The notes below the pieces were generated by a model, which worked only from the letters and a program-made list of their open reading frames with translations, searched no databases and was not told where the DNA came from. From the UHGV virus genome UHGV-0202726: 44,520 nt of DNA; one strand, 5' to 3'. Positions 1 through 40,270 of the stretch are shown piece by piece. Position 1 is the first letter of the stretch, and each line of letters starts with the position of its first letter. A program made the translations under genes and the position numbers. Origin of the DNA: a virus.

Positions 1-59
1 ATAGACTCGTCAATATCGTCACGAGATTTAACTGGGCTGGTGAACTCTTGCAGTGCCAT
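1..59 (-). CDS. hypothetical protein, N-terminal part only (gene continues past the left edge)
   Basis: ATG at 59 on minus strand with GGAGA 5 nt upstream; reading frame open to position 1. Confidence 0.3.
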   Translation of the reverse strand, partial: MALQEFTSPVKSRDDIDES

Positions 60-128
60 AATGGTCTCCATTAGCAAATACGAAAAACTTGGCCTAACCA
101 GAATACTAAATGCCTTCGGATTCGTCCA

Positions 129-614
129 TCATTTCACCGCGCGTCCAATAGCCTCAGCCTCCTGCCACGGTTTACCGTCGAACAGTGCCAGACGTCCGGC
201 AGTACGGCGACGCAGGCCTAGTAATGGTTTGCCGTTCTGGTTAATGAACAGCGCCAGCTTAGCCCGCAGCGTCGCAATATCCCCGGAACGCAGCGCTTTA
301 CCCGTACCAGTGGTAGCGGCAATCACGCCAGCACCGGCGTTATACACCAGGTCACACACTGCGTCGAACTGTGCCTGTGTAAGGGAATGGTGCGCTGCGG
401 CGTCAACCGCAGCTACGGCCTTAGCCATATCGCGATTCAGTAACAGGAGGCCTTGTCCGGGGGTGATGGTCTGTCCTGCCTTAACATGAGGGCCATAGCT
501 TCCATATCCGATAGTAAGGTACTTCTCGTTTGGTGTAGCACGATACGCAGTTCCGCGGAATCCCTCGAACGCAGCGGTGAAATGCAGTCCATTATCTGAA
601 ATGTTTCGAGACAC
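129..614 (-). CDS. endolysin, T4-type lysozyme-like
   Basis: FEGFRGTAYRA...TIGYG motif typical of phage lysozyme catalytic region; GTG start at 614 with GGAGGA 7 nt upstream preferred over track ATG at 665, which has no RBS. Confidence 0.8.
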   Translation of the reverse strand: MSRNISDNGLHFTAAFEGFRGTAYRATPNEKYLTIGYGSYGPHVKAGQTITPGQGLLLLNRDMAKAVAAVDAAAHHSLTQAQFDAVCDLVYNAGAGVIAATTGTGKALRSGDIATLRAKLALFINQNGKPLLGLRRRTAGRLALFDGKPWQEAEAIGRAVK

Positions 615-864
615 GCTTATGTCCTCCGTACGATAGCCACGCCTGACGAATCTGACGCAGCGCAACTAATGTGATTAATGTCTCTGGCAGCGTGGGGGAC
701 ATGCTGCCCTGTAACAGGTGGATGCACCCGGCAGCGCAGACAATAGCGGTCAGGATATAGAGCACCCGGCCAAATAGTCCGTCGTCAACGCTTGGGTGGT
801 ATACATTAAACAGCGATGTGCCCCCGATTGCCAGCATACCGCCGAACCAGAATAACTCATTCAT
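592..864 (-). CDS. small membrane protein, holin or antiholin-like (2 hydrophobic segments)
   Basis: ATG at 864 overlaps the stop of the upstream holin (ATGA); two hydrophobic stretches (FWFGGMLAIGGTSLF, VLYILTAIVCAAGCIHLL); sits directly upstream of the lysozyme. Confidence 0.5.
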   Translation of the reverse strand: MNELFWFGGMLAIGGTSLFNVYHPSVDDGLFGRVLYILTAIVCAAGCIHLLQGSMSPTLPETLITLVALRQIRQAWLSYGGHKRVSKHFR

Positions 865-1165
865 CTGTACCCCCTCGACGTGCGATGTATTCTCCGGCAA
901 CGATACCAGAGAGGCGGGAATAGATAGGCATCCAGAGAATAGCGATAATGAAGCCCAGACCGGCGATTTCACGGTCGCCAGTAATGCCGAACCATTGTGC
1001 CGCGAGGGGTGCGCCAAATACGGCGCAAGTGAAGCCAGTTGCAATAAAGCAGAAGCCGTCGATGGGGCCAGAAATAACGGACTTATGCTGCCGTAGTCCG
1101 ATTACCCCACCAGCGAGTGCGGCAGCCAGAAGCCAGCCTGTCACAGTTTCAGTAAATTTATCCAA
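857..1165 (-). CDS. holin-like membrane protein (3 hydrophobic segments)
   Basis: Three hydrophobic segments with a charged C-terminus; TTG start with GGAGGA 6 nt upstream; first gene of the holin-holin-lysozyme run. Confidence 0.55.
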   Translation of the reverse strand: MDKFTETVTGWLLAAALAGGVIGLRQHKSVISGPIDGFCFIATGFTCAVFGAPLAAQWFGITGDREIAGLGFIIAILWMPIYSRLSGIVAGEYIARRGGTDE

Positions 1166-1224
1166 GATGAATCCTCCAGGTGCGTATTAAGTATGCAGTA
1201 ACTGGAGGATAGCACGGTTAGGAA

Positions 1225-1665
1225 TTATCCTAATAGTTGTTTGGTAATAATCTTGCCGCCGGTGTTAATGTCGAATTGAGAGGCTACAGTAATCGCGCGT
1301 GTTGCGGTTTCGCCCAAATACATAGCCGCTAACGCATAGGGCGAGCCGGACCCAACGGCGGCAAAGCTATCGGCGACAGGGATAACCGAACTAAGGGCAC
1401 AATCCCATGATTTATAAAACGCGACTTTATACACCTTTTCTGTGTCTTTCACGAACACCAGGGCTTCGAAATCGAAGTCATAGTGCTTTGCCCGAAGGAT
1501 ACCGGGGCAATCGATAAGCATAGCGCCTACCCCCGCATCACCCGCCACCCCGATAACAGCAAAATCATTCTCGTATATCTTAGTGCCAGTGTTGTAGCAG
1601 TTACTTCCGCACACAACACGCGTGTCGCAAGCCATTGTCTTTCCGTCAAACGCGATAGTAGTCAT
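1225..1665 (-). CDS. HslV/proteasome beta-type Ntn-hydrolase peptidase-like protein
   Basis: N-terminal MTTIA (Thr nucleophile after Met), central K...IGVAGDAG and AVGSGSPYALAA matching the HslV GSGG region as recalled from memory; GGAGA RBS; ATGA overlap with upstream gene. Confidence 0.6.
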   Translation of the reverse strand: MTTIAFDGKTMACDTRVVCGSNCYNTGTKIYENDFAVIGVAGDAGVGAMLIDCPGILRAKHYDFDFEALVFVKDTEKVYKVAFYKSWDCALSSVIPVADSFAAVGSGSPYALAAMYLGETATRAITVASQFDINTGGKIITKQLLG

Positions 1666-1955
1666 TTGTGTCTCCAGATGTATTGTCGTCTCTGCGGTTT
1701 CGTCGGAATATCATCGTATCCCAGAGATTTCCAGTAATTAAATAACCGGTTAGCGATAGCTGCACGTTCCTGTGTTTTGAACTCACCGAGATTTACGGCC
1801 TTCCCGTTCTGGAACCCACAGGCGCGGACAGCTTTGCGTCTGGCCTGAATCTCCGGGTACAGCGCGTTATGGCGGCGCTTGTGTATGCGCGTCTTAGCTC
1901 TCGGTGACAGCGGCTCAAGGCCTCTTCGTTTCAGGATGTCAGTTGCAAGGCTCAT
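1662..1955 (-). CDS. hypothetical basic protein, possible AP2-like DNA-binding fold
   Basis: ATG with GAGGG RBS; Arg/Lys rich; segment NLGEFKTQERAAIA resembles AP2-type DNA-binding domains (weak). Confidence 0.45.
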   Translation of the reverse strand: MSLATDILKRRGLEPLSPRAKTRIHKRRHNALYPEIQARRKAVRACGFQNGKAVNLGEFKTQERAAIANRLFNYWKSLGYDDIPTKPQRRQYIWRHK

Positions 1956-2170
1956 TTAACACCCTCAAGTATCTTACGAGCTAGTGATTCAGCATCGTCT
2001 GCACTTAATACAACACAACCGGTTTCGCTGTAAACCTGCAACTCTACAAGCCCACACTCGCCTTCATCGTCTTTATAAAATTGAATACAGCAGACATCCC
2101 CGTCTTTGTCTTCGAACTCGAACGTAGGACAATCCGGCGTTCTTAGGCTGCTACGGTCTCTGAATATCAT
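1952..2170 (-). CDS. hypothetical protein
   Basis: ATG at 2170 with GGAG RBS preferred over the track's upstream non-ATG start at 2218; stop overlaps next start. Confidence 0.4.
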   Translation of the reverse strand: MIFRDRSSLRTPDCPTFEFEDKDGDVCCIQFYKDDEGECGLVELQVYSETGCVVLSADDAESLARKILEGVK

Positions 2171-2443
2171 AATCACTCCACCCCTTCCACATGTGTAACC
2201 GACCCACAGTTCGCGCACTCGACGTAATCCGGGAACTGGTCTTTGTATTTCTGTAACTCGGCTTCGAGAGCCATTAAATCAGAGTACCGCACGCGCACAT
2301 ACTCGCCGCTATATCAGGCCTCCGGCGGCAGTGTACGCCAGTCGAATAGTTTAATCATCACCACGCCTCCATAGAGTAAAACGTTTCTGATGCCGCGAGG
2401 TGCATCTGGCCTGCGGACAGTACCCAGATAAAGAGGATGCTGG

Positions 2444-3136
2444 TCATAAGTTTATCACCCCGCATTTGGTACAACGCCGCCCGTTGGGGTAATAATATTC
2501 CCACTCATGTTTGCATTTCTGCGTATAGGCTTTCGGCTCATACTCCGGGTCATCCCACTCACGCGCACCGCATTCGCAGCAAAACAGACTACCGGGCACG
2601 TTGCCCTTGTGGCCTTCGGCGATAAACAATCCTGGAGCGATAAGCCAATTGTGGTCACATTCCTGGGTATCTTCTTTACGGCAACCGGATTTCTCAGTGC
2701 CAAGCGCACCTTTACGGATAAGTTTGTACGCCTCCACGTCACCGGTAGCCAGTCGTTTTACCAGGTCATCAACTTGCGCTTGAAAGCGCAACGCATCGCC
2801 GCGATATGCTGACGATTGCCCTGTCAGGTGCGATATGTGCTCAGATTTCTTAATGTTGTCTTCCCGCAACTCCTTAATCTGCGCCGACGCATCACGTAAC
2901 TGATTCTTAAGTGACTGCACCTCATGCGCCAGGTCTTCGCACTGTTGCTTGTACTGGTTGTGCTCCAGGCCGATGTAGGCATCGATTACGGCATTTTCCT
3001 CGTCGGTATAGTTACCGCGACCAGCAATACTACGGTCGATACTCCACCGTTTAATTTCACCCATTACATCTGCGACCGGTAGCTGCTGCCGTAGTTGGTC
3101 AATCAGGTACTCGAATACTTCGTTTTTGTTACTCAT
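2444..3136 (-). CDS. hypothetical coiled-coil protein with C-terminal Cys-rich zinc-ribbon-like region
   Basis: ATG at 3136 (MSNKNE...) with GGAGGA RBS and 8-nt overlap with upstream gene; C-terminal CCECG...CTKCG cysteine pairs. Confidence 0.5.
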   Translation of the reverse strand: MSNKNEVFEYLIDQLRQQLPVADVMGEIKRWSIDRSIAGRGNYTDEENAVIDAYIGLEHNQYKQQCEDLAHEVQSLKNQLRDASAQIKELREDNIKKSEHISHLTGQSSAYRGDALRFQAQVDDLVKRLATGDVEAYKLIRKGALGTEKSGCRKEDTQECDHNWLIAPGLFIAEGHKGNVPGSLFCCECGAREWDDPEYEPKAYTQKCKHEWEYYYPNGRRCTKCGVINL

Positions 3137-3347
3137 CTTCTGGTTCCTCCCCATTATATTCTTCGAACACAAAGTCATCGTCTGCGGATAGCGCCCATCG
3201 ACCATACCCCGCGTAGTAGACATCAAGTTCAGTGCCGTTGTCGTCTATTACGTAGCAGCGGCTCTCGTCGCCGTCTTCTTTGAGATGGTATAAGTCGTTT
3301 TTAGTCAGCACCCAATAGTCATCGTGGGATTTGCATTCCAGGAACAT
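3129..3347 (-). CDS. hypothetical acidic protein
   Basis: ATG with GAGGAGAGA RBS; first gene downstream of the promoter element at 3379-3408; acidic C-terminus. Confidence 0.5.
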   Translation of the reverse strand: MFLECKSHDDYWVLTKNDLYHLKEDGDESRCYVIDDNGTELDVYYAGYGRWALSADDDFVFEEYNGEEPEDE

Positions 3348-3378
3348 CTTCTGTCTCTCCTCTCGTCTGTGTAAATGA

Positions 3379-3408
3379 ATAGTAGCCTATTCTATTTCAG
3401 CGTGCAAG
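3379..3408 (-). promoter_or_regulatory. promoter, TTGCAC-N18-TACTAT class with palindromic GAATAG/CTATT core
   Basis: -35 TTGCAC (3408..3403), -10 TACTAT (3384..3379) on minus strand, about 35 nt upstream of the ATG at 3347; related to the elements at 5157-5185 and 27631-27659. Confidence 0.5.
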
Positions 3409-3414
3409 TAAATT

Positions 3415-3588
3415 TTATTGGTGTGTTATAGAGTCGATGAACGCCAGTAACGCGCGCTCCGCTTCTGCTTCTCTTTCCTCAAGTGACCAGGTAGCGGACT
3501 CCTCTGTTGCCGTTGCTAAATCGGTTTTTACATCAATCATCGTGTCAATTAACGTGATTAGTCGTTCGGCCTGTTCTTTAGTAATCAT
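3415..3588 (-). CDS. hypothetical small protein (57 aa, below ORF-track cutoff)
   Basis: ATG at 3588 with GGAGA RBS 7 nt upstream; fills the gap between terminator and promoter. Confidence 0.3.
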   Translation of the reverse strand: MITKEQAERLITLIDTMIDVKTDLATATEESATWSLEEREAEAERALLAFIDSITHQ

Positions 3589-3639
3589 TGTTGCATCTCC
3601 TGCAATAGTCTCTTCGATTGTTGCGTTTGGTGAAATAGA

Positions 3640-3679
3640 ACAAAAATGAGAAAAATGATACGCTGCTGTGTAGCAGCGT
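3640..3679 (-). terminator. rho-independent terminator
   Basis: Stem ACGCTGCT/AGCAGCGT with 4-nt loop followed on minus strand by TCATTTTTCTCATTTTTG. Confidence 0.6.
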
Positions 3680-3759
3680 AAGTCACTCAGTAAAATCCCA
3701 AACTATTGAACATCACACTTCCAGCGGCTCGGGTAACGGCATCCAGTGTGTTATACGTA

Positions 3760-4065
3760 TCAATCAGTCGCGTGTTTACGTACCCAGGCGATGCGTGCCG
3801 GATTTAGGTGGATTGTTCCATCATCGCACTCGACGTCATAGTTAGGTTCGCCGTGGTTAAACGGGTAGCCCGAATCTAACCCAGCGTTGGTAAACTGTGC
3901 TTTCAACTCCAGGCGCAGAGCGCGGAGGTTGTAACCTTTATCACCTGCCCACTTATGCAATGCGAAACATAGTCCGGTGCAACATGTGAATACGCCATTG
4001 TTAACCGCACCAGCATCGAGCCACGCAGCGTAGGCTTTATAAAATGCTTTAAGTTCTTCGCTCAT
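3760..4065 (-). CDS. hypothetical protein
   Basis: ATG with GAGG RBS; 101 aa; no recognisable domain. Confidence 0.5.
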   Translation of the reverse strand: MSEELKAFYKAYAAWLDAGAVNNGVFTCCTGLCFALHKWAGDKGYNLRALRLELKAQFTNAGLDSGYPFNHGEPNYDVECDDGTIHLNPARIAWVRKHATD

Positions 4066-4068
4066 ATC

Positions 4069-4212
4069 TCACCTCGTATTCATCGCATATTGCACACCAG
4101 CTTTCCACGCCCGCCACGCGAGACGTGTCTTAACGTTAAGGTACTCTTTCTTAGAACCCTTGTTAACCGGCAGACCCTCGACGACGGCCCACCGTTCAAA
4201 TGCTTCTCTCAT
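4069..4212 (-). CDS. hypothetical small protein (47 aa)
   Basis: ATG at 4212 with TAAGGA RBS; exactly fills the gap between 4216 and 4065. Confidence 0.3.
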   Translation of the reverse strand: MREAFERWAVVEGLPVNKGSKKEYLNVKTRLAWRAWKAGVQYAMNTR

Positions 4213-4215
4213 AAC

Positions 4216-4473
4216 TTAGTCCTTAACCTTTACCCAGAATTCACCACAATACCAGCACCACAAAAGATTAGGGGTCTCACGAACCCAACCATAATCCTTA
4301 CGTGCACGAATCGGGATAATGCCTTTAATGGAATAATAACCTGTCTGAAGAAACTCAGGGTCGCGCGTCGCAATGCGCCACATGTTATAGAACTGCTCCA
4401 GCCCCGCACCCCGACGCATGACCCGTATTTTACGGTTATATTCCGCTACTGTTTTCAGTTCAGTATTATTCAT
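4216..4473 (-). CDS. hypothetical protein
   Basis: ATG at 4473 shares TAATG overlap with upstream stop; GGGAGG RBS. Confidence 0.5.
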   Translation of the reverse strand: MNNTELKTVAEYNRKIRVMRRGAGLEQFYNMWRIATRDPEFLQTGYYSIKGIIPIRARKDYGWVRETPNLLWCWYCGEFWVKVKD

Positions 4474-4706
4474 TAACGGCAACCTCCCTCGGAGTCGTCG
4501 GCACGAGCATCATGATTCGATGCCGTTGTGTATATTTCCGCTTCGGCCTTAGTTACTGGCACTTTGTAATGCCTGACCTTAATCCACCAGCCGTACTCGC
4601 AGGAGTCCAGCACATCAAAAACATCGCCAATATTTACGCCTATGCTTTCCAGAGTATCGTTAGCTGTTTCATAGGTAACGGTGTTATCTGTAATTATGAT
4701 TTGCAT
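4473..4706 (-). CDS. hypothetical protein
   Basis: ATG at 4706 in TGATG overlap with upstream stop. Confidence 0.5.
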   Translation of the reverse strand: MQIIITDNTVTYETANDTLESIGVNIGDVFDVLDSCEYGWWIKVRHYKVPVTKAEAEIYTTASNHDARADDSEGGCR

Positions 4707-4885
4707 CACTTTGCCCCTTTGAATTTAAAATTGTTGCCGATGAGTGTTAGCTCGTACTCGTAAAACCACATATCAAAATCCCAGTACGGATTAGTCAAAA
4801 AATATCTCCCTGGTATTTTAGAACCTCGCACAATGACGCCGTACCCGCAGTCTTTCGTTTTAACCAACTGACCGTGCTTAAACAT
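4706..4885 (-). CDS. hypothetical protein
   Basis: ATG at 4885 with GAGGGG RBS preferred over track GTG at 4894. Confidence 0.45.
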   Translation of the reverse strand: MFKHGQLVKTKDCGYGVIVRGSKIPGRYFLTNPYWDFDMWFYEYELTLIGNNFKFKGAK

Positions 4886-4903
4886 AACCCTCACCCCTCT
4901 GTC

Positions 4904-5122
4904 TTATTTAAAGTAGATAGCGAATTTCTTGTAACCCGCAGGCTCGTTACGAAGCCCTTTACCGTTGGCGAAACGTTGTACGTTAATAAAATCATTTTCA
5001 TCCATTCCGTCGGTGTCGAACGTAAAGAAGTTTCGTTTGTTCCCGATGATTACTCGCTCTGAGATATCGATGCCGTAAACTTCTTTTATTGCGGAAACTA
5101 CGCTTGCGGTCGCTTTGTTCAT
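4904..5122 (-). CDS. hypothetical protein
   Basis: ATG with AAGGAA RBS; first gene of the leftward operon. Confidence 0.5.
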   Translation of the reverse strand: MNKATASVVSAIKEVYGIDISERVIIGNKRNFFTFDTDGMDENDFINVQRFANGKGLRNEPAGYKKFAIYFK

Positions 5123-5156
5123 TTCTAAATTCCTTATGTCTCGTTTCGATAAGTGA

Positions 5157-5185
5157 ATAGTATCCTATTATGTTGGGGTGTGCAA
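5157..5185 (-). promoter_or_regulatory. promoter, TTGCAC-N17-TACTAT class (leftward)
   Basis: -35 TTGCAC (5185..5180), 17-nt spacer, -10 TACTAT (5162..5157); 36-bp element 32/36 identical to the one at 27629-27664. Confidence 0.5.
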
Positions 5186-5560
5186 GAGAATAGTTACGTT
5201 GCCGTTGTGATTCGTTCGTTTCTTAAAAGAGTACGCAACGCAGTGGGTGGGCGTTAGCCCACCCCAGCGGAGTGAAGTACTCTCTACCTTGCTTACGGCA
5301 ACTATAGAAACTTTTAATTATCATATACTTAAGAGATATGCTGCCGATGAGAATAGAGCTTGCCCAGGGCAACCGGAGATACTAAGGAAGGAAAGTTACG
5401 ATAATTCTTATGTTCAGTAATCTGCCGCTTAACACTTCGCTGGCGCTGGTGCGCCGCTGCGTTTCAAGCGGGTATTACAAGGTGAACAGGAATCAAAGTA
5501 ACTAAGATATAGAAGCACCTTAAACGAAGATTTTCATAATGTCAATAGGTGCGATTATGT

Positions 5561-5589
5561 TTGATTTCCCATTATTCGCAATGTATACT
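5561..5589 (+). promoter_or_regulatory. sigma70-like promoter (rightward) for the HTH/replication operon
   Basis: TTGATT, 17-nt spacer, TATACT, about 30 nt upstream of the GAGGG RBS and ATG at 5622. Confidence 0.5.
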
Positions 5590-5621
5590 TGGTTTCGTTA
5601 ACTGATAATGAGGGTTTGAGA

Positions 5622-5792
5622 ATGACGCAGAATGAGGTAGCTGAGCGTATTGGGGTTACTCGTCGTACGCTTAATAACTGGTTAAAGAGTGGGAAGTTCC
5701 CTGATTGTTGTACCCGCATTATGGGCCGCCGGCAGCCAGGTACGTTTGACCCGGAGAAAGTGGAAGCGTGGATTAAGGAGAATGTAAAATGA
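5622..5792 (+). CDS. helix-turn-helix DNA-binding protein (AlpA/excisionase-like fold suggested)
   Basis: ATG at 5622 with GAGGG RBS preferred over track TTG at 5589; MTQNEVAERIGVTRRTLNNWLKSGKFP looks like an HTH. Confidence 0.55.
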   Translation: MTQNEVAERIGVTRRTLNNWLKSGKFPDCCTRIMGRRQPGTFDPEKVEAWIKENVK

Positions 5793-6022
5793 CCGAGTTC
5801 CAGTCCCGGGTATTTACGGCTGTCGTTTCGCTAACACGTAAAAAAGGGTCGTGCAGCGTTATGGACTTGCGTCGTAGTTATTTTAGGTACTATAGTTCCG
5901 CCATTATTGAAGGGTCGTTGAAGGTGCTGGTTAAATCTGGTGTCGTGAAAAATGTTGGTGGGAAATATAGTGCTGTTGCTGAAGTTCGCGGAATGACCGC
6001 TACTTTAGAAGACCTGGAATAA
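5789..6022 (+). CDS. hypothetical protein
   Basis: ATGA overlap with upstream stop; AAGGAG RBS. Confidence 0.5.
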   Translation: MTEFQSRVFTAVVSLTRKKGSCSVMDLRRSYFRYYSSAIIEGSLKVLVKSGVVKNVGGKYSAVAEVRGMTATLEDLE

Positions 6023-6080
6023 AAGAAAGCCCCGACGCGGTGAACGCCGAGGCCAAATTACTTGCTGAAGGAATTATAAT

Positions 6081-8348
6081 ATGTCCGATGTAATTTTATC
6101 CTACTCGTGGTCACGCCGCAACGCGCGAGCAGAGAAAAAGGATATAAACGTCAGAACCACACACACGGCAACACTGGACGACCTGAAAGCGTTAATCCAG
6201 CCGCTTGATGCTGTTCGTGATGGGATTAACCCGAAGACAGCGCCCGGCTATATCACCGCCGCGTGTGACTCTACACACAGCACCGTGAAAGACCCGGAAA
6301 CCGGTGACTTTAAGCAAGCGCGTAAAGGCTTTTTCTATCGCTGCGACGCATCTGTAAGCAAATCGTCGCTGGCGTATCTGGACTTCGACAGCGCAACGCC
6401 GGAAGAGTATCAGGAAGCGGTGCGTCTGGTTAAGCGAAGCCGCCGTGCGATGTGCCTCTATACCACGGCATCACATACCGACGAGTCCCCGCGCTTTCGC
6501 GTCGTCATGCCGCTGGCCCGTCCGGTTGAAGTCGGCGACATCATCCGTGTTCGTCATGGGTTGCTTGAGCACTTCTTCAAAGGCATGGGCGCGGACCGCA
6601 GCGGGTTCACTCTGTCGCAGCCGATGTACCTGCCGCCAGTTGGCTCTCATGTTATCTGGTCGCGCCGCAACGACCTGATTGACCCGGACGAATTACTGGA
6701 AGGCATCCCCGCCGTTGACGTTAGCAGCGCATCGGATTACCAGATACCAGAAGAACTGCGCACCGCGTTTACAGATGCGTTCGAAGCACTGGCGTTCGAG
6801 TACGGCGGCATCATGACACCGCGCGGCCTTAAGATGCCAGCTACACCGGAACACGCAGAGAACTACAGCGACCCGACGCCGCGCCCGGATGACTTTCTGC
6901 TGTGTTTCCCGCGAGAGGGGTACGAAGCGCCGAACGTAACCATGATTCACGACACCGACATTACGGCAACCGAAGGCATGTCGCCGAAAGAGGTGTGGAA
7001 ATACGCGTGCGATGCGACTGGTCTGCCGTTCAGTGAAGTAGCCGAGGCAATCGGCTGGGGTGCACGTGAATCTGTTTCATGCAGTCTCGACGACCTGGAA
7101 GACGACGAGGACTCAGAGGAGGACGAGTTACCAGAACCGGTAAAGGCTGATTTCGTCGTCGAAGGGTACATGCCGTCGGATTGTATCTGGGATATCGTCG
7201 GGGAATCTGGCACGTACAAATCGTTTTATACGCTGGGGATGATGTACCTCAGCGCCGCCGGATACCGGTTCGCGGGGGCGGACACCCAGCGTTGCCACCA
7301 TTTCTATATAGACGGTGAGGGCGGCGCGGCCACACGTACACGTATTGATGCGCTCGCGGCTAAATACGGCGTGGAGGGTAAAGATTATGTACATGTCATA
7401 GACATGGGTGAGGTCGGAAAACTTAAAAGCCTGATTAAGTTAATGCGCGAAACTGCTGGCGACGAGCCAATCGGCATGGTTGCGTTCGACACCCTTAACC
7501 AGACGCTGGCCCTGACGATTGATAAGTTCGACGAGAACAGCTCATCAACGGCAATCGGTATGGGTAAAGTTATCGCCATCCTGAAAGAAGTACGTGATGC
7601 GACTAAAGCCGCGGTAGGTGTTGTCCACCACACACCGAAGGGCGGAAAGAAAGCCCGTGGTAGTGGGGCGCTGTACGCTGGCGTCGACGTGGAACTGACA
7701 ATTGAACGCGCTACCGACCGTCAGATAAACGTATATCACTCGAAATTTAAGCACGGGCCACAACAGAAGACAGTTGGCATGGTTCTGGAGTCGGTACAGT
7801 TCCGTGAAGCCCCGCCGCCGAAAGAGTACCGTGCAGTTGAGTTCCTGGGTAGCACAGAGGAATACGGCACAATCGTAAACCTGGACCTGCCTGAGCCACA
7901 CAAGGCGCTTGTGCTGATGCCGTGGGGCTTCGAGCCGTTTAAGACTGACGAGGAGAAAGAGCGGGAAGAAGGACTGACGAAGGAAGGTAAAGAAAACGTA
8001 CGTAAAACCGTAGAGAACGCCGTCAACAGTTCAGAAGCCACGATACTGGCGGCGTTTGAACTGGCGGAAGGAACCTACAACGGCAACGAGGGCATCACGG
8101 TAGCCGCAGCGAATAAGCTCGCACAGTCCGACCCTAACGCAAAGGCGTTTAACTCCAAAGAAGCCATAGAACGCGGGAAGATTAAGAAAATGGTTGAGGC
8201 GGGGTATCTTGTGCCAGGGACCGACGAAAACAATCAGATAATACCAGGCCGTTACAGGCTGAATACCCGGATAACGGATAACAAGATTCCGAAGACACTA
8301 TACGAACCGAATGAAATGCTGGTGGTGACCGAGGATGATTTGGAATAA
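6081..8348 (+). CDS. replication protein, RecA-fold ATPase (putative primase/helicase)
   Basis: 755 aa; Walker A GESGTYKS, Walker B-like MVAFDTLNQ, HHTPKG motif in C-terminal half; GAAGGA RBS; large N-terminal domain of unknown type. Confidence 0.7.
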   Translation: MSDVILSYSWSRRNARAEKKDINVRTTHTATLDDLKALIQPLDAVRDGINPKTAPGYITAACDSTHSTVKDPETGDFKQARKGFFYRCDASVSKSSLAYLDFDSATPEEYQEAVRLVKRSRRAMCLYTTASHTDESPRFRVVMPLARPVEVGDIIRVRHGLLEHFFKGMGADRSGFTLSQPMYLPPVGSHVIWSRRNDLIDPDELLEGIPAVDVSSASDYQIPEELRTAFTDAFEALAFEYGGIMTPRGLKMPATPEHAENYSDPTPRPDDFLLCFPREGYEAPNVTMIHDTDITATEGMSPKEVWKYACDATGLPFSEVAEAIGWGARESVSCSLDDLEDDEDSEEDELPEPVKADFVVEGYMPSDCIWDIVGESGTYKSFYTLGMMYLSAAGYRFAGADTQRCHHFYIDGEGGAATRTRIDALAAKYGVEGKDYVHVIDMGEVGKLKSLIKLMRETAGDEPIGMVAFDTLNQTLALTIDKFDENSSSTAIGMGKVIAILKEVRDATKAAVGVVHHTPKGGKKARGSGALYAGVDVELTIERATDRQINVYHSKFKHGPQQKTVGMVLESVQFREAPPPKEYRAVEFLGSTEEYGTIVNLDLPEPHKALVLMPWGFEPFKTDEEKEREEGLTKEGKENVRKTVENAVNSSEATILAAFELAEGTYNGNEGITVAAANKLAQSDPNAKAFNSKEAIERGKIKKMVEAGYLVPGTDENNQIIPGRYRLNTRITDNKIPKTLYEPNEMLVVTEDDLE

Positions 8349-34540: not shown

Positions 34541-35590
34541 TTAAGACCCAACACCAGTTACCAGGAAGGCAATCGGTACATGCTTACGGTCAACAACACG
34601 GTTCCAGTTGGAGGCGTTCGCCAGGTCCTGCCAGGAAGCGGAGCGCGGGGTAGTCTCGGTGCCGTTGCCGGTGATCACCGCGCTGGTGAAGCTGTAGCCC
34701 AGTGGGTGCAGCAACCAAGTCTTACGTGTCCACAGGGTTTCGACGCCACCACCGTTACCGCGAGACTCTTCGCGCGCATAGGCCAGCGGGTTGGACGGAG
34801 AACCTTCACCGTAACCAATAGCGCCGTTGCCGAAGATGATGGAGATGAACTTACGGCTGCCACCAGTACCGACTACGGTCATGCTGTCATCAACAATCAC
34901 GCGGTAGCCCTGGTAGGTGGCGAACAGGGTGTCGTTGTCAGCGTTCTTGATGAAGTCAATAAGCTGCTGCTTACGGGCCTGCGCATAAACGAAGCTGTGC
35001 ATCGCAATAGCGCCAAGCACTTCACCGCCGTTGCCCATCAGGGCATCACCCATAGTCTGGGTAGCGTCGATGAACGCGCCTGCATCGAAGCCCAGAGTAG
35101 AGGACACGTCGATTACCATGTCATTCTGCTCGTGGTAAGCATCGGTAGCAGCTACGTTGTCATTGTACAGACCGAGCGCGGTAGCAATCAGACGGCGTTG
35201 TGCCTGACGCTGCCAGAAGTTATCCAGGCGAGAAGCCACAGATTGCAGCGGGTTCTGGCTGGTCAGTTCAACGGTCAGGTCAGCCTGGCCAAAACCTTCG
35301 TTCAGGTAAGCTACGCGCGCCATCATCTCGCCGGTCTGGACATTACGCGGGGTAGCGATGTCCTGGTATACGTCGTTCGAGTAGTTCGGCTCAATAGAAG
35401 TGTCAATCGCTTTCCAGAAAGGAATATTAGCGATGTTGGACGAGCCGCGGGCAATCTCGGCAGCGTATGGAGTCGGGGACAGAATACCAGACTGGAAAAA
35501 CGCGGTTTTTTCTACCGGGTCCTCGGTCATATAAGACGCCAGGACCGGGATGTTGCCAGTTACGATATCGCCGATAGTGGTAATTGCCAT
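34541..35590 (-). CDS. major capsid protein
   Basis: 349 aa directly downstream of scaffold gene; GAGGAA RBS; flanked by attenuator hairpin. Confidence 0.8.
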   Translation of the reverse strand: MAITTIGDIVTGNIPVLASYMTEDPVEKTAFFQSGILSPTPYAAEIARGSSNIANIPFWKAIDTSIEPNYSNDVYQDIATPRNVQTGEMMARVAYLNEGFGQADLTVELTSQNPLQSVASRLDNFWQRQAQRRLIATALGLYNDNVAATDAYHEQNDMVIDVSSTLGFDAGAFIDATQTMGDALMGNGGEVLGAIAMHSFVYAQARKQQLIDFIKNADNDTLFATYQGYRVIVDDSMTVVGTGGSRKFISIIFGNGAIGYGEGSPSNPLAYAREESRGNGGGVETLWTRKTWLLHPLGYSFTSAVITGNGTETTPRSASWQDLANASNWNRVVDRKHVPIAFLVTGVGS

Positions 35591-35592
35591 TA

Positions 35593-36294
35593 TTATTTCC
35601 TCAGGGCTTTAAGTTGCCGTTCAAATTCGGCAGGGTTCGATTTATACAGTGCTAAACGCTCTGCTTCACTCATGTCTTTAAACGCTGGTGCGGCCCCGCC
35701 GCCTTTGCTACCGGAAGCCCCGCCGCCGGAAGCTGCATTTGCTTTAATCAAATGCGAAAACGCTTTGTGTTCGCGCAGGTATTTGCGGAACTGTTCCGGG
35801 TCAGTCGTGATTACGTTGCCGTCTGCGCCGACAAACTTAGTAACCACATCATCGCCTTCGAACTCAGTCTTAACGAACGGCGCAAGGATGTCCACTGCTT
35901 CCGGGGTAATAAAGTCACCCGCGAAAGAGCCTAACACCGCTTTACGTTCGCTGCCGAGGATGCGCTCTGCCATTCTGGAGATGCGGCCATCTTTCTCGGC
36001 TAACACCGGGTCATACTGGCTACGAATCGTCTTTTCGAACTCGTCCATCTTACCTGCGGCTTTTAACGCCTCCTGGTGTGCGCGCTGCCGTTCTTCTTCG
36101 GCCTCTTTTGCTTTGCGAGCGGCTTCTTTCTTCTCCGCCAGCAATGCTTCCTGATTGGCCTTAAGCCCGGCGACTTCTTTCTCAATCAGCGCCTGAACTT
36201 CTTCGGCGGTGAACATTTTCGGCGCGTCACCGCCACCGGCTTTATCTTCTGCCCCAGCTTCTTCCTGGAACGGATAACGTAAAAAACGATTCAT
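35593..36294 (-). CDS. scaffolding protein
   Basis: ATG at 36294 (MNRFLRY...) preferred over track TTG 36348; Ala/Glu/Lys-rich coiled-coil; immediately upstream of the capsid gene. Confidence 0.6.
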   Translation of the reverse strand: MNRFLRYPFQEEAGAEDKAGGGDAPKMFTAEEVQALIEKEVAGLKANQEALLAEKKEAARKAKEAEEERQRAHQEALKAAGKMDEFEKTIRSQYDPVLAEKDGRISRMAERILGSERKAVLGSFAGDFITPEAVDILAPFVKTEFEGDDVVTKFVGADGNVITTDPEQFRKYLREHKAFSHLIKANAASGGGASGSKGGGAAPAFKDMSEAERLALYKSNPAEFERQLKALRK

Positions 36295-36376
36295 AGTCAG
36301 TATGTCCCCTGGACGTTGGAATCCGGGCCACCCGGATTTACATGTCAAGAATAAATTATTCCAACATGCAAGGCAA

Positions 36377-36640
36377 CTATTCCAGAATATTCCTCACGTA
36401 GTCCTGCAACATGAACACTTTCAGTCTCAGTTGCCGTACACATTCAGCGTTCTGAACGTCGATAGCTAAATCCTCGTCCGCGTCGCTACTTGGTGCCGCC
36501 AGTTTGCACGGCGGCTGCATCATCGTCGTATCCGGGGATGGAATTGGCATTTGCGACGGCGCGGGACTTGAGCTGCACGCGCTCAGGGTCAAAAGTGCAC
36601 ACGCTGCGACCAGGCGTTTTAATGTACTTAACGACTTCAC
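36377..36640 (-). CDS. o-spanin (Rz1-like outer-membrane lipoprotein)
   Basis: Signal peptide with lipobox LSAC, Pro-rich mature part; overlaps the 3' end of the i-spanin gene in another frame. Confidence 0.6.
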   Translation of the reverse strand: MKSLSTLKRLVAACALLTLSACSSSPAPSQMPIPSPDTTMMQPPCKLAAPSSDADEDLAIDVQNAECVRQLRLKVFMLQDYVRNILE

Positions 36641-36872
36641 GGGTGATCACCTCTGATTTCGTCTTGCCTTCGTTGTCAGCGGCTGCGGCCTTCGATTCAT
36701 CCTGCTGCTGCCGTTGTGTTTTCTTCGCTAACGCAGCCTGTGCTTTCTGCTGTTGCTGCGAAACGAGATTCGCCCGGCCTTCGTTCCAGCCGATGCGGTA
36801 TTGATAGTAGCCGTGGGCATATAACAGGATGATGAAACATGCCCCTGCTACGACAGTTGCTTTAAGATTCAT
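36486..36872 (-). CDS. i-spanin (Rz-like)
   Basis: N-terminal transmembrane anchor, Gln/Ala-rich coiled-coil, periplasmic C-terminus; overlapped by Rz1-like ORF. Confidence 0.65.
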   Translation of the reverse strand: MNLKATVVAGACFIILLYAHGYYQYRIGWNEGRANLVSQQQQKAQAALAKKTQRQQQDESKAAAADNEGKTKSEVITREVVKYIKTPGRSVCTFDPERVQLKSRAVANANSIPGYDDDAAAVQTGGTK

Positions 36873-37123
36873 GTTTCTCCTTTCTCGATAAGTAAAGCCC
36901 CGCCATAAAGCGGGGCGCTAGTCCTTATCATTTAAACATAGAAACGGCGTAATCTCAGTAAACCCGTTCCTTTTTACACAAGCAATAGAGTATGGCCCTT
37001 CCGAACGCGTCAGCGTAACTACACTCAGGACTTACGTCCCGCTCCGTTACCTGCCCGCGCCGCGGTCGCTTGTTCATACTTCACAAGCTCAGGTGGAGCT
37101 TATCACATTTTTAGTGAAAAGTC

Positions 37124-37139
37124 AACTATTCGAATAGTT
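37124..37139. repeat. perfect 16-bp palindrome AACTATTCGAATAGTT
   Basis: Read directly; lies in the 340-bp non-coding region upstream of the Rz gene; shares the GAATAG/CTATT core with the promoter-associated motif. Confidence 0.9.
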
Positions 37140-37189
37140 TATTCCAACATTTACAATTAGGAGGAATAACTGGAATAATAACAGGCGCT

Positions 37190-37209
37190 AAAAAGCCCCT
37201 TTCGGGGCC
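37190..37209 (-). terminator. rho-independent terminator downstream of the Ig-like gene
   Basis: AGCCCC-TTTC-GGGGCT hairpin followed on minus strand by TTTT. Confidence 0.5.
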
Positions 37210-37214
37210 TTAGT

Positions 37215-37676
37215 TTATTCAGGCTTAGTGACCTTCGCCGCTTTACTGACGGCCTCTACACCATCGGCATCGGTAACTTTAACGAAGTATTCGCCTGCCG
37301 CGTTAACCGTAAGAGACAAAGCCTCTTCGGGTGCGTTTACAACTTCCTTACCATCTTTGTACCAGGTCAGAGCATACGGCGCTTTACCAGCCTTAACTTC
37401 GACCGTGATAGTTGCGCTGCCGTCTGCCAGTTCTGTGTCTTTCGGTTGCACCGAGAAATACACGTCGCCAGCATCAGCCAGATACGGAATTTCATAAAGC
37501 ATACCCGCCGCCGGCAGCGCAATACCGGTTTTATCTGCAAACGGCATGTCGTCTACTGGTGTACCAAGTACACTTTCATCTTCGATAAATACCACGTTCT
37601 CACCAGAACCAGACACTCGGGCGTACTGAACTACGCGACGCGACGGTACATCAGTTACTTTGAAAAAGCCCATCAT
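37215..37676 (-). CDS. Ig-like domain protein
   Basis: 153 aa; C-terminal ITVEVKAGKAPYALTWYKDGKEV...GEYFVKVTD pattern of Ig-like domains. Confidence 0.5.
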   Translation of the reverse strand: MMGFFKVTDVPSRRVVQYARVSGSGENVVFIEDESVLGTPVDDMPFADKTGIALPAAGMLYEIPYLADAGDVYFSVQPKDTELADGSATITVEVKAGKAPYALTWYKDGKEVVNAPEEALSLTVNAAGEYFVKVTDADGVEAVSKAAKVTKPE

Positions 37677-38752
37677 TAATCCCCTTTCAGATAATCAGCA
37701 ACACGTTTATCGAGTTCCGCCATCTGCTTAAGCGTGAGCGGATTCCCGAAACCATCTACAGATATTACGCGAAACTCTTCCGGCGATATACCGCTGTTGC
37801 GGAAAATCTTACCTCGCACCGGGCCGAGCGCCTGGTCCTGAAACCATGCGGGTTGTTGTTTCAGGAACTCGTAGTAAGTGGTGTCTGCGCTTACCTGAGT
37901 ACCGCCATCCGCACCCTTAGCCGCGCGTTTTGCACCTTTATCAAGGAAGTCGAACTCGGAACTGATTACCGGAGCCGTGCACGACCGGCAGTTCGGATGG
38001 GCGGGTGGCATCGGCCCTTTACCGATTTCCCACGTCATCCCGTCTCTGGCCCTGCAAATCGTACTGGTACGGCTGTCCAGCGTCGACACCCACTCGTACT
38101 TCTCGATGATGTCGTCGTTCTGGCGGTACGTCTCGTTACGTGCTTCGTTGGATACGTGAGACAGAGCGGTGCGGATTACCGTCGCAGCGTTTCGTTCTGA
38201 AATGTCCGCCAGTCCACCAGCGCCTACGACATTTTTAACAATCTGCCGTGTGGTTTGGCCTTGTACGAAACCCATCTTAACGCCAGTTACCAGGCGCGCG
38301 ACCTCCGTTTCACCCCAGCCAGACATCAGCTTCGTGAAATCAACAGGCTTGTCACTTAACGATAATGGCTGAAACTCGGCAGCGGCCCACACCTGTTCTG
38401 CGGTAGGCGTAACAAATTCCGCGTTAACGTTAGCCGTCAGCGTCTTTACGTTCCACTCAGCCTCATATGCCACCAGTTCCTTAAGGTCTTCTGTCAGTTT
38501 TGTTTGCCAGTCACCGGTAAGTCCTGCCAGTGCTTCTTCGAGGTCGCGTAACAGTTTATTCAGTCGCGCAGTGCTGCGACCGTCGTCACCGAATAGCAGA
38601 ACCTGCCGTTTGATTTCGTCTCGCATCTCCTGAATGAATGGTGTGAGGTCTTTCACTTCACCGGAAGCGGCTCGTTGTAGCCATATCTGGTGGCTTATTA
38701 GGGATGTAAGTAAGCTCATAGATAAACCCTGTGGTGCTAAAGTTAATAGCAT
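37676..38752 (-). CDS. head morphogenesis protein (Mu F / SPP1 gp7-like)
   Basis: 358 aa directly downstream of portal; PPAHPNCRSCTAP motif typical of the Mu F-like minor head protein family; alternative ATG at 38719. Confidence 0.7.
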   Translation of the reverse strand: MLLTLAPQGLSMSLLTSLISHQIWLQRAASGEVKDLTPFIQEMRDEIKRQVLLFGDDGRSTARLNKLLRDLEEALAGLTGDWQTKLTEDLKELVAYEAEWNVKTLTANVNAEFVTPTAEQVWAAAEFQPLSLSDKPVDFTKLMSGWGETEVARLVTGVKMGFVQGQTTRQIVKNVVGAGGLADISERNAATVIRTALSHVSNEARNETYRQNDDIIEKYEWVSTLDSRTSTICRARDGMTWEIGKGPMPPAHPNCRSCTAPVISSEFDFLDKGAKRAAKGADGGTQVSADTTYYEFLKQQPAWFQDQALGPVRGKIFRNSGISPEEFRVISVDGFGNPLTLKQMAELDKRVADYLKGD

Positions 38753-38760
38753 ACTATAAG

Positions 38761-38778
38761 AAAGCCCCTTTCGGGGCT
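38761..38778 (-). terminator. GC hairpin between portal and head morphogenesis genes (attenuator or processing site)
   Basis: AAAGCCCC-TTTC-GGGGCT; no strong U tract. Confidence 0.3.
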
Positions 38779-38788
38779 ATATGCGAAC

Positions 38789-40270
38789 TTACCGCTGAAT
38801 GGTATCTTGTTGCTGCGCCGACTGCGGAATCTCCCCCGCTACCTTGGTAACCGCGCCCATCGGCAGAGGTGCATCCTCGATAGCGTTCTGAATGTCCTCA
38901 TCCGTCCAGTCAGTTACACCCGCCTTACGCAACGCTGCGTAGTAAGCAGTAGCCGGTAACAGGCCTGCGTTAATGTCCGCCATCCACTGTGCACGGTCCT
39001 GAGCGGTCATAGGCTGCAGGAAGAACTCCATATTCAGCTTGAACTCAATCTCTGTGCCTTCACGTAGCCCTAGCATCGCAGCAACCCAGCGCAACGCATC
39101 TGTATACGCCATGCTTACGTTACGTGCGATTGTTGCCATAACGGACGTATCAGCGCCGCGTTGCAGCCGGGCCGATTCCGCGGTGATTTGCTGCGTCTGG
39201 GTGATAAGCTGCGCACCAATCTGGATGGCCTGATTCTCTTTGTCCAGCATATTCTGTTTGGCGAGGTTGTTCTCTCCCGCCTGAACCAGAAACGCATTGC
39301 CGCCGTAACCGATGTTATGGCCTGAGCGCGACCCCATGCGCACGCCGTGTGGGTTGGCTTCTGCCCACTGTTCCATGCTCATGTTCTCACCCGGGGCGAT
39401 GAACAGAGTGGGCTGGCCTACAACGAAGCTGGATTCCTCATTGTCCGCGCTGTTGCGGAAATGTCCGATATTAAGCTCAGCCAACGGCAGCAAAGGTGCG
39501 TCGTCGATGGTTGCATCGTTGTTGCTTGCGCCGATGAACGTGAACGGGATTTTGCCGCGCAACTGTTCGCCAAGTTCCGGGAAGATTTCTTTTACTTCAC
39601 CCTGTGCGCCACCTTCTGCATCGAAGCGGTAAATGCGCTGACGGTAGCGTCCATCAATAAGGTCAAGGACGCGATATTGCTCACCGAACTTTGTTTCGAA
39701 CTCTGCACCCGGTTCTGAGTATTCCCACACCTCACGCAGCACTACCATTGTCACGCGGTTAACCGAACCGATACGGGTCAGTCGCCAGTTGATGATGTTC
39801 TCCGCGGTATAGAACGCGATGACCGGGTTTAATAAACCGGCGTTCTGTTCAGCTGCCGTCGCCGCAGCCGTCTCCGGGGCGTCCACCAGCAACCCACCAC
39901 GCCCTACCGAGTCAATCTCCATCAACGTGTCCTGCGCGTGCTGCCACAGCCCGACGCCAGAACCGTCAGCGTTGCGTAACAGGTACTCCAGTTCAGGTGG
40001 AATGATCTGTTCCGGGTCTTTGCGCATGACACTGCCAACCATCCCCGCCAGGGTGCGTTTAGTGAAGTTGTAGCAGATAGCCCCGTTCTCGTATTCTTCC
40101 TGGCGCTGTGCCGCGTAGGCCGGGTCTGGTTCGTTCTTCCCGACATTTCGAAGATAGCGAATAAGGTCGCCTTCCAGTGCGTGGCGTACCTTCTGCCATT
40201 TATCGAAGTGATGCAGCCATTCCCGGTGTTTTGTCTTAACACCCTGATTCTGACCGTTCATAGTTAACAT
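38789..40270 (-). CDS. portal protein
   Basis: 493 aa immediately downstream of the terminase large subunit. Confidence 0.75.
   Translation of the reverse strand: MLTMNGQNQGVKTKHREWLHHFDKWQKVRHALEGDLIRYLRNVGKNEPDPAYAAQRQEEYENGAICYNFTKRTLAGMVGSVMRKDPEQIIPPELEYLLRNADGSGVGLWQHAQDTLMEIDSVGRGGLLVDAPETAAATAAEQNAGLLNPVIAFYTAENIINWRLTRIGSVNRVTMVVLREVWEYSEPGAEFETKFGEQYRVLDLIDGRYRQRIYRFDAEGGAQGEVKEIFPELGEQLRGKIPFTFIGASNNDATIDDAPLLPLAELNIGHFRNSADNEESSFVVGQPTLFIAPGENMSMEQWAEANPHGVRMGSRSGHNIGYGGNAFLVQAGENNLAKQNMLDKENQAIQIGAQLITQTQQITAESARLQRGADTSVMATIARNVSMAYTDALRWVAAMLGLREGTEIEFKLNMEFFLQPMTAQDRAQWMADINAGLLPATAYYAALRKAGVTDWTDEDIQNAIEDAPLPMGAVTKVAGEIPQSAQQQDTIQR

Follow-up and report, generated by a model that had tools for sequence, protein, structure and literature searches.

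A predicted proteasome-like peptidase of the PPH family as an accessory gene in an Escherichia coli Kagunavirus

How is a gene for a small, proteasome-like peptidase to be understood when it lies beside the lysis genes of a phage in which no AAA+ unfoldase is found? The question is raised by a 44,520-nucleotide stretch of viral DNA (UHGV-0202726; the whole of this stretch is referred to as the window), which shows ~88–90% nucleotide identity to the phages UTEC10 and BCH953P1 and belongs with the E. coli Kagunavirus phages of the Guernseyvirinae. A first-pass annotation had described the product of one 146-aa reading frame as an HslV-like Ntn-hydrolase lacking an HslU partner, and had proposed that it might hijack host HslU, poison the host HslUV protease as a decoy, or process a phage or host target. 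Here, we examine which family the protein belongs to, whether its active site is intact, and which of these roles is compatible with its distribution and surroundings.

The reading frame itself was as the first-pass annotation had described it (Table 1). Its product reads MTTIAFDGKTMACDTRVV...IGVAGDAG...AVGSGSPYALAAM..., with the N-terminus MTTIAFDGKTMACDT..., and the gene is clearly real, as homologues with invariant catalytic residues are found in more than 300 phage records and more than 2,000 cluster representatives. The ATG (1665-1663) overlaps the TGA (1664-1662) of a 97-aa reading frame to form an ATGA, with a GGAG lying 6 nt 5′ of the start codon. The overlap that had earlier been described as translational coupling within the lysis operon is thus present, but it joins the peptidase to this upstream gene, whose product matched no Pfam or NCBIfam family, and not to the lysis genes, which begin beyond a 59-nt spacer with the first of two holins. 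A strong hairpin separates the peptidase from the holin gene, so that a shared operon is no more than plausible. This hairpin (MFE −22.4 kcal/mol, z = −3.83) carries the Shine-Dalgarno sequence of the holin, GGAGGA, in its 3′ arm and is invariant among the Kagunavirus relatives. At the equivalent spot, the hairpin of the Jerseyviruses is unrelated and precedes a U tract; its 3′ arm likewise contains the holin Shine-Dalgarno sequence (loci L008/L009, ~6470-6515). The spacer hairpin could be a conserved throttle on holin translation or transcription. A promoter and terminator scan of positions 1-6200 returned nothing beyond chance beside the peptidase gene, and we infer its late expression from gene position and strand only. 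The one transcriptome paper that was checked gave no data for the gene, and our literature search found nothing on virion proteomics or expression timing for it. Further upstream in the same string of genes, a 260-aa reading frame (2444-3226, minus strand) is coiled-coil in its middle part and rich in Cys at the C-terminus, with several CxxC-like pairs; its sole database match was a weak, sub-threshold one to Phage_scaffold, and the proteins found at this position in relatives vary widely in length (130-237 aa).

Table 1. Positions of the peptidase gene, its predicted catalytic codons and other features of the window.
Feature	Position	Strand	Remarks
PPH-family N-terminal-threonine peptidase CDS, 146 aa	1225..1665	−	
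Catalytic codon, Thr2	1660-1662		
Catalytic codon, Asp14	1624-1626		
Catalytic codon, Lys29	1579-1581		
Catalytic codon, Gly42	1540-1542		
Catalytic codons, Gly105-Ser106-Gly107	1345-1353		
Catalytic codon, Asp132	1270-1272		
Catalytic codon, Thr135	1261-1263		
97-aa ORF, phrog_9632	1662..1955	−	Upstream of peptidase; function not assigned
Hairpin, peptidase–holin spacer	1171..1210	−	9-bp stem AUCCUCCAG/CUGGAGGAU
Holin, 102 aa	857..1165	−	First lysis-cassette gene 3′ of peptidase
Second holin, ~90 aa	592..864	−	Start inferred from annotated relatives
Endolysin, Phage_lysozyme domain	129..614	−	PF00959 E=7.6e-26; start inferred from relatives
SPP1-like head module	34541-35590 and 35593-40270	−	No protease gene

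Searches with the single sequence gave faint signals: Pfam returned Proteasome at E=0.021, under the gathering threshold, and phmmer against the PDB returned HslV at E=0.047, alongside a better-scoring decarboxylase match that is spurious. As such searches are too weak to place the protein, profile and structure searches were needed. Against the PHROG profiles, residues 1-143 match phrog_1040, "peptidase HslV family", with 124 bits (E=1.7e-35). An exhaustive HMMER search recovered 2,143 relatives among cluster representatives, nearly all of them 135-160 aa long and 30-42% identical, and homologues were found in 308 phage records as well as in 429 viral contigs; for the longer relatives (186-230 aa), Pfam shows no additional domain. 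When an alignment of 114 of the 2,143 relatives was turned into a profile and compared with solved chains, the best matches were to HslV (2e-11), BPH (4e-10) and beta5 subunits (~1e-9), and hhalign against E. coli HslV, the sequence of which agrees with PDB 5ji3 and 1e94, gave a probability of 97.4% (E=1e-11) at an identity of 25%. These results point to the proteasome-beta type of Ntn fold that characterises Pfam Proteasome (PF00227) and MEROPS T1.

Within this large grouping, the protein corresponds to the PPH family of Fuchs et al. 2021 (PMC8665760; reference sequence WP_042125023.1), whose members are ~140 residues long, are encoded by Caudovirales and in prophage regions, and have no propeptide. 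The same study reports that the triad Thr1/Asp17/Lys33 and the oxyanion Gly47 are conserved, that H2 is lacking and that there is no C-terminal S12/H5. All of the features named there are found in the 146-aa protein, which begins MTT with no propeptide and is encoded by a tailed phage of the genus Kagunavirus; the assignment rests on these features together with phrog_1040. The gene had been treated as unusual in the first-pass annotation, a view that does not survive the published family, the PHROG profile and the GenBank labels of close relatives ("peptidase HslV family protein", "ATP-dependent protease" and "nucleophile aminohydrolase"). We consider it very probable that the protein is a PPH with a competent active site, the latter as a prediction. 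Literature searches found no experimental study, biochemical or genetic, of any PPH, the PDB holds no PPH structure, and the PADLOC defence-system models matched neither the peptidase nor its 97-aa neighbour.

The predicted structure agrees with this placement. The AlphaFold2 model (pLDDT 94.6, pTM 0.89) matches HslV, BPH and beta5 in Foldseek with E values of ~5e-7 and TM scores of 0.70-0.75. It has a single short helix (residues 46-51) where HslV has both H1 and H2, corresponding to a gap of ~30 residues opposite HslV residues ~58-92 in the hhalign alignment, and it ends after a strand at residues 139-143. Across the 114 aligned sequences, and with numbering that includes Met1, position 2 is Thr in 110/114 (96%) and Ser in the other 4/114, while D14 and K29 are each conserved at 100% and G42 at 99%. 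The triplet G105/S106/G107 is conserved at 100/94/100% and D132 at 95%, and position 135 is Thr, Ser or Cys. These residues align with Thr1, Asp17, Lys33, Gly47, Ser129, Asp166 and Ser169 of the proteasome, and with the corresponding positions of HslV; at the Asp166 position, the 146-aa protein has Asp, as do the beta subunits, whereas HslV has Cys. The protein has the fold of a proteasome beta subunit together with the full catalytic set, so that the Ntn-hydrolase fold and the Thr, Lys and Gly-Ser-Gly positions that the first-pass annotation had proposed are both borne out. Conserved residues do not, however, guarantee measurable proteolysis.

When the protein is compared specifically with HslV, the earlier HslV label does not hold. 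Against the NCBIfam HslV equivalogs (TIGR03692 / NF003964), it scores 16.9 bits where the cut-off is 157.75 and 16 bits where the cut-off is 137, and it is equally near HslV, BPH and the 20S beta subunits. From its sequence, we conclude that the peptidase is not an HslV orthologue. This bears directly on the proposal that the protein recruits host HslU, the two making up a hybrid ATP-dependent protease by which folded proteins of host or phage are degraded. E. coli, the host, has HslU, HslV is among the closest solved relatives, and the MTTI start without a propeptide is shared with E. coli HslV. Yet the surface through which such a hybrid would form is largely deleted. In E. coli HslV, the pocket that receives the C-terminal tail of HslU is formed by F54, F57, Q114, A79 and K80 (PMC6429459). 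In our alignment, F54 falls opposite A48, a variable position, and F57 opposite I51, while A79 and K80 lie inside the deletion; the apical H1/H2 surface lacks H2 altogether and the greater part of H1, and its pocket residues are unconserved.

The genomic context points the same way. As the first-pass annotation had stated, no AAA+ unfoldase is encoded in the window, where P-loop proteins are limited to an AAA_25 helicase-primase and an SNF2 helicase, and no such unfoldase is present in the fully annotated relative Bas73; no partner hslU occurs in the same genome or operon. Furthermore, a PPH relative occurs in a Microbacterium phage, which has an actinobacterial host, whereas HslV has no entry for Actinobacteria in Table 1 of PMC8665760; this distribution argues against a dependence on HslU. 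With the docking surface largely deleted, we regard a hijack of HslU as quite unlikely, although HslU might conceivably be used, weakly or transiently, by way of a different surface. The related idea of a decoy, in which the protein would co-assemble with host HslV or titrate HslU and so poison HslUV and stabilise some protein, appears less probable still. Nothing but the common fold and the retention of H3/H4 speaks for it, and it must contend with an identity of 25% to E. coli HslV as well as with the missing docking surface. A decoy would need no catalytic residues, yet these are the most conserved positions of the family.

If the protein does not serve HslU, a second possibility is that it takes part in building the virion. 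SPP1 heads mature without proteolysis, and the head module of the window is of the SPP1 type, with genes for a portal (phrog_145), a gp7-like head morphogenesis protein (phrog_241), a scaffold (phrog_206), a major capsid protein and an Ad1 adaptor. The major capsid protein matches SPP1 gp13 (PDB 4an5, 6r3a) from residue 1 (E=2.6e-43) and has no propeptide. The peptidase gene lies outside this module and is missing from most congeners, and in the Microbacterium phage Cassita a capsid maturation protease is encoded separately from the PPH-like "protease", the gene for which lies upstream of the terminase. We conclude that capsid maturation is not the job of the peptidase in the window phage, in agreement with the earlier statements that it is not of a prohead protease type and that the capsid module has no protease gene. 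The 204-aa protein encoded after Ad1, a slot that is occupied by a PPH gene in some other phages, was considered as a hidden relative and rejected (hhalign probability 0.2%).

A different role in assembly can be envisaged, in which the protein would be a new type of virion-assembly protease that processes scaffold, portal-associated, connector or tail proteins and is perhaps packaged. Its attraction comes from the positions of PPH genes in other phages. Among 52 groups of deduplicated viral contigs outside the Guernseyvirinae, at least 33 have the PPH gene no more than 4 kb away from genes for head, packaging or connector proteins and on the same strand, in arrangements that place it beside or inside modules showing no canonical prohead protease. 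The slots include TerS-[PPH]-TerL, portal-[PPH]-scaffold-MCP, MCP-Ad1-[PPH]-Hc1 and [PPH]-TerS/TerL, and the window resembles Cassita in having the gene a few kb upstream of the terminase (~3.5 kb in the window) on the same strand. This proximity carries modest weight, as by a rough estimate chance would bring a gene this close to them about half the time in a phage of 40 kb. The slots are also of at least six differing kinds, unlike those of core morphogenetic genes, and such a wandering position within late operons fits an accessory late gene instead. Together with the viability of the ~70% of Kagunaviruses that do without the gene, the SPP1-like capsid protein without a propeptide and the separate maturation protease of Cassita, this makes an assembly role improbable in our view.

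The survey of relatives also yielded several observations on individual loci. In Cassita, the annotated start of the gp16 "protease" (locus 4940-4965), VKIAWDS..., omits the in-frame upstream sequence ...ITTIAAKATNGK, and the true N-terminus probably includes the catalytic Thr-Thr, perhaps with a non-ATG start. Pseudomonas phage vB_PaeM_GXNNE2, a nucleus-forming jumbo phage of the genus Elvirus, encodes a 182-aa PPH relative that is annotated as hypothetical (locus 5001-5549); it has internal insertions and a C-terminal extension of ~20 residues, and it matches the family profile with E=2.6e-31. A search of bacterial genomes with a sub-alignment profile returned 45 PPH loci. Five copies in Roseomonas/Falsiroseomonas (Acetobacteraceae) lie in an island of variable length between pyrB and plsY, while ~20 further loci, mostly from Acetobacteraceae, have the gene elsewhere. 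For four or five of the other loci, neighbouring portal or head-morphogenesis genes suggest a prophage, and the Acetobacteraceae copies may be prophage remnants or domesticated copies. No informative partner gene emerged from the bacterial loci.

Within its own genus, the gene is unevenly distributed. The 97-aa upstream gene is found in 483 phage records, 113 of them Escherichia/Kagunavirus, and many of these lack the peptidase, for which only ~33 of the 308 phage records are Escherichia/Kagunavirus. Overall, the peptidase is present in ~30% of Escherichia/Kagunavirus records versus ~70% of Salmonella records, and is missing from ~70% of Kagunavirus records. The phages fTaEco01 (MT711527.1, 1534-1613) and Bas75 (PQ850596.1, 40283-40362) show what its absence looks like: the spacer hairpin and the holin come immediately after the 97-aa gene, with the peptidase cleanly absent, although fTaEco01 retains a remnant of ~12 nt from the 3′ end of the peptidase gene. 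The peptidase gene is therefore accessory within its own genus, and the existence of phages without it means that neither plaque formation nor lysis nor assembly requires it. The 97-aa protein was considered as an obligate partner of the peptidase and set aside, as it persists in peptidase-less phages.

Where the gene is present, its product varies in a structured way. In a set of 119 sequences that share at least 80% identity with the window protein, two surface segments are hypervariable, residues 44-62 (the short H1 and the loop that follows) and residues 116-127 (the H3-H4 turn), with a mean entropy there of ~1.0 bit versus 0.3-0.4 bit elsewhere, while the active-site residues are invariant. 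The hypervariable segments resemble mosaic blocks of alleles (for example, MYLGETATRAITVASQ versus MECGYSAHGGVAVASK). The patchy presence of the gene among near-identical phages, the hypervariable segments around an invariant active site and the repeated relocation within late operons would fit an accessory weapon for counter-defence or host takeover: an ATPase-independent threonine protease with a defence or stress protein, or another factor, of the host as its target, either acting late in infection or travelling with the virion into the next cell. We regard this more specific reading as rather unlikely, if somewhat less so than a role in assembly; if true, no earlier proteasome-type protease would have had a part in phage–host conflict.

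Taking identity and mode of action together, the explanation that we favour, and consider probable, is that the gene encodes an accessory PPH peptidase whose action does not depend on an ATPase. The mode of action, taken by itself, is the more tentative part: judged from the sequence features described above, the protein may be a self-sufficient, ATPase-independent threonine peptidase, a proposal that we hold with somewhat less than even confidence. A Thr at position 2 permits the action of methionine aminopeptidase, and the host enzyme would remove Met1 and expose Thr1. The peptidase would be translated from a transcript continuing into the genes for lysis and packaging. It would then act alone, either as a ring formed through the retained H3/H4 helices or as a small, specific enzyme like connectase. 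The H3/H4 helices mediate ring–ring contacts in proteasome-type assemblies, and their retention makes ring assembly possible; on the other hand, the loss of H2 may block it, in which case the exposed active site would need high specificity. The substrate would be a phage or host protein or peptide, the cleavage of which would raise fitness on some hosts and would not be needed for capsid maturation or lysis, and no step would proceed via host HslU. The comparison with connectase also brings up a non-degradative activity, in which the protein would be a sequence-specific transpeptidase or ligase of that kind, or else an amidohydrolase whose substrate is not a protein; we give this about as little credence as a part in virion assembly, and both the morphogenetic and the ligase roles are minor possibilities.

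The ATPase-independent peptidase that we favour is not a new kind of system, as the PPH family was published in 2021 and is annotated in close relatives. What this analysis adds is the accessory status of the gene, the two hypervariable surface segments of its product, its several positions inside the late head and packaging operons of other phages and the SPP1-like type of the capsid, which needs no protease. The PPHs are the only proteasome-like lineage that is mainly viral. The Kagunaviruses offer a handy entry to their biology: they are 44-kb E. coli phages for which there are sequenced isolates with the gene (Bas73) and without it (Bas75 and fTaEco01), and Bas73 and Bas75 belong to the BASEL collection.

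Set against known systems, the 146-aa protein differs in nothing essential from the PPH family, which is likewise encoded by tailed phages and prophages of Proteobacteria and has no partner ATPase. Peculiar to the Kagunavirus/Jerseyvirus clade are short insertions at residues 87-89 and 92-95, in addition to the two hypervariable segments. HslV (ClpQ) is similar in its N-terminal start, but relative to it the peptidase is ~30 residues shorter, lacks H2 and part of H1, has no adjacent hslU and falls far below the equivalog cut-offs. BPH and the 20S beta subunits, at 180-220 aa, likewise have H1 as well as H2, and they assemble into heptameric rings. Finally, the prohead proteases of the HK97 gp4/S78, ClpP-like S14/S49 and T4 gp21/U9 types resemble the PPHs in being phage-encoded late proteases, and some PPH relatives sit in the portal–scaffold slot, but in fold and catalytic type they are unrelated to the PPH family.
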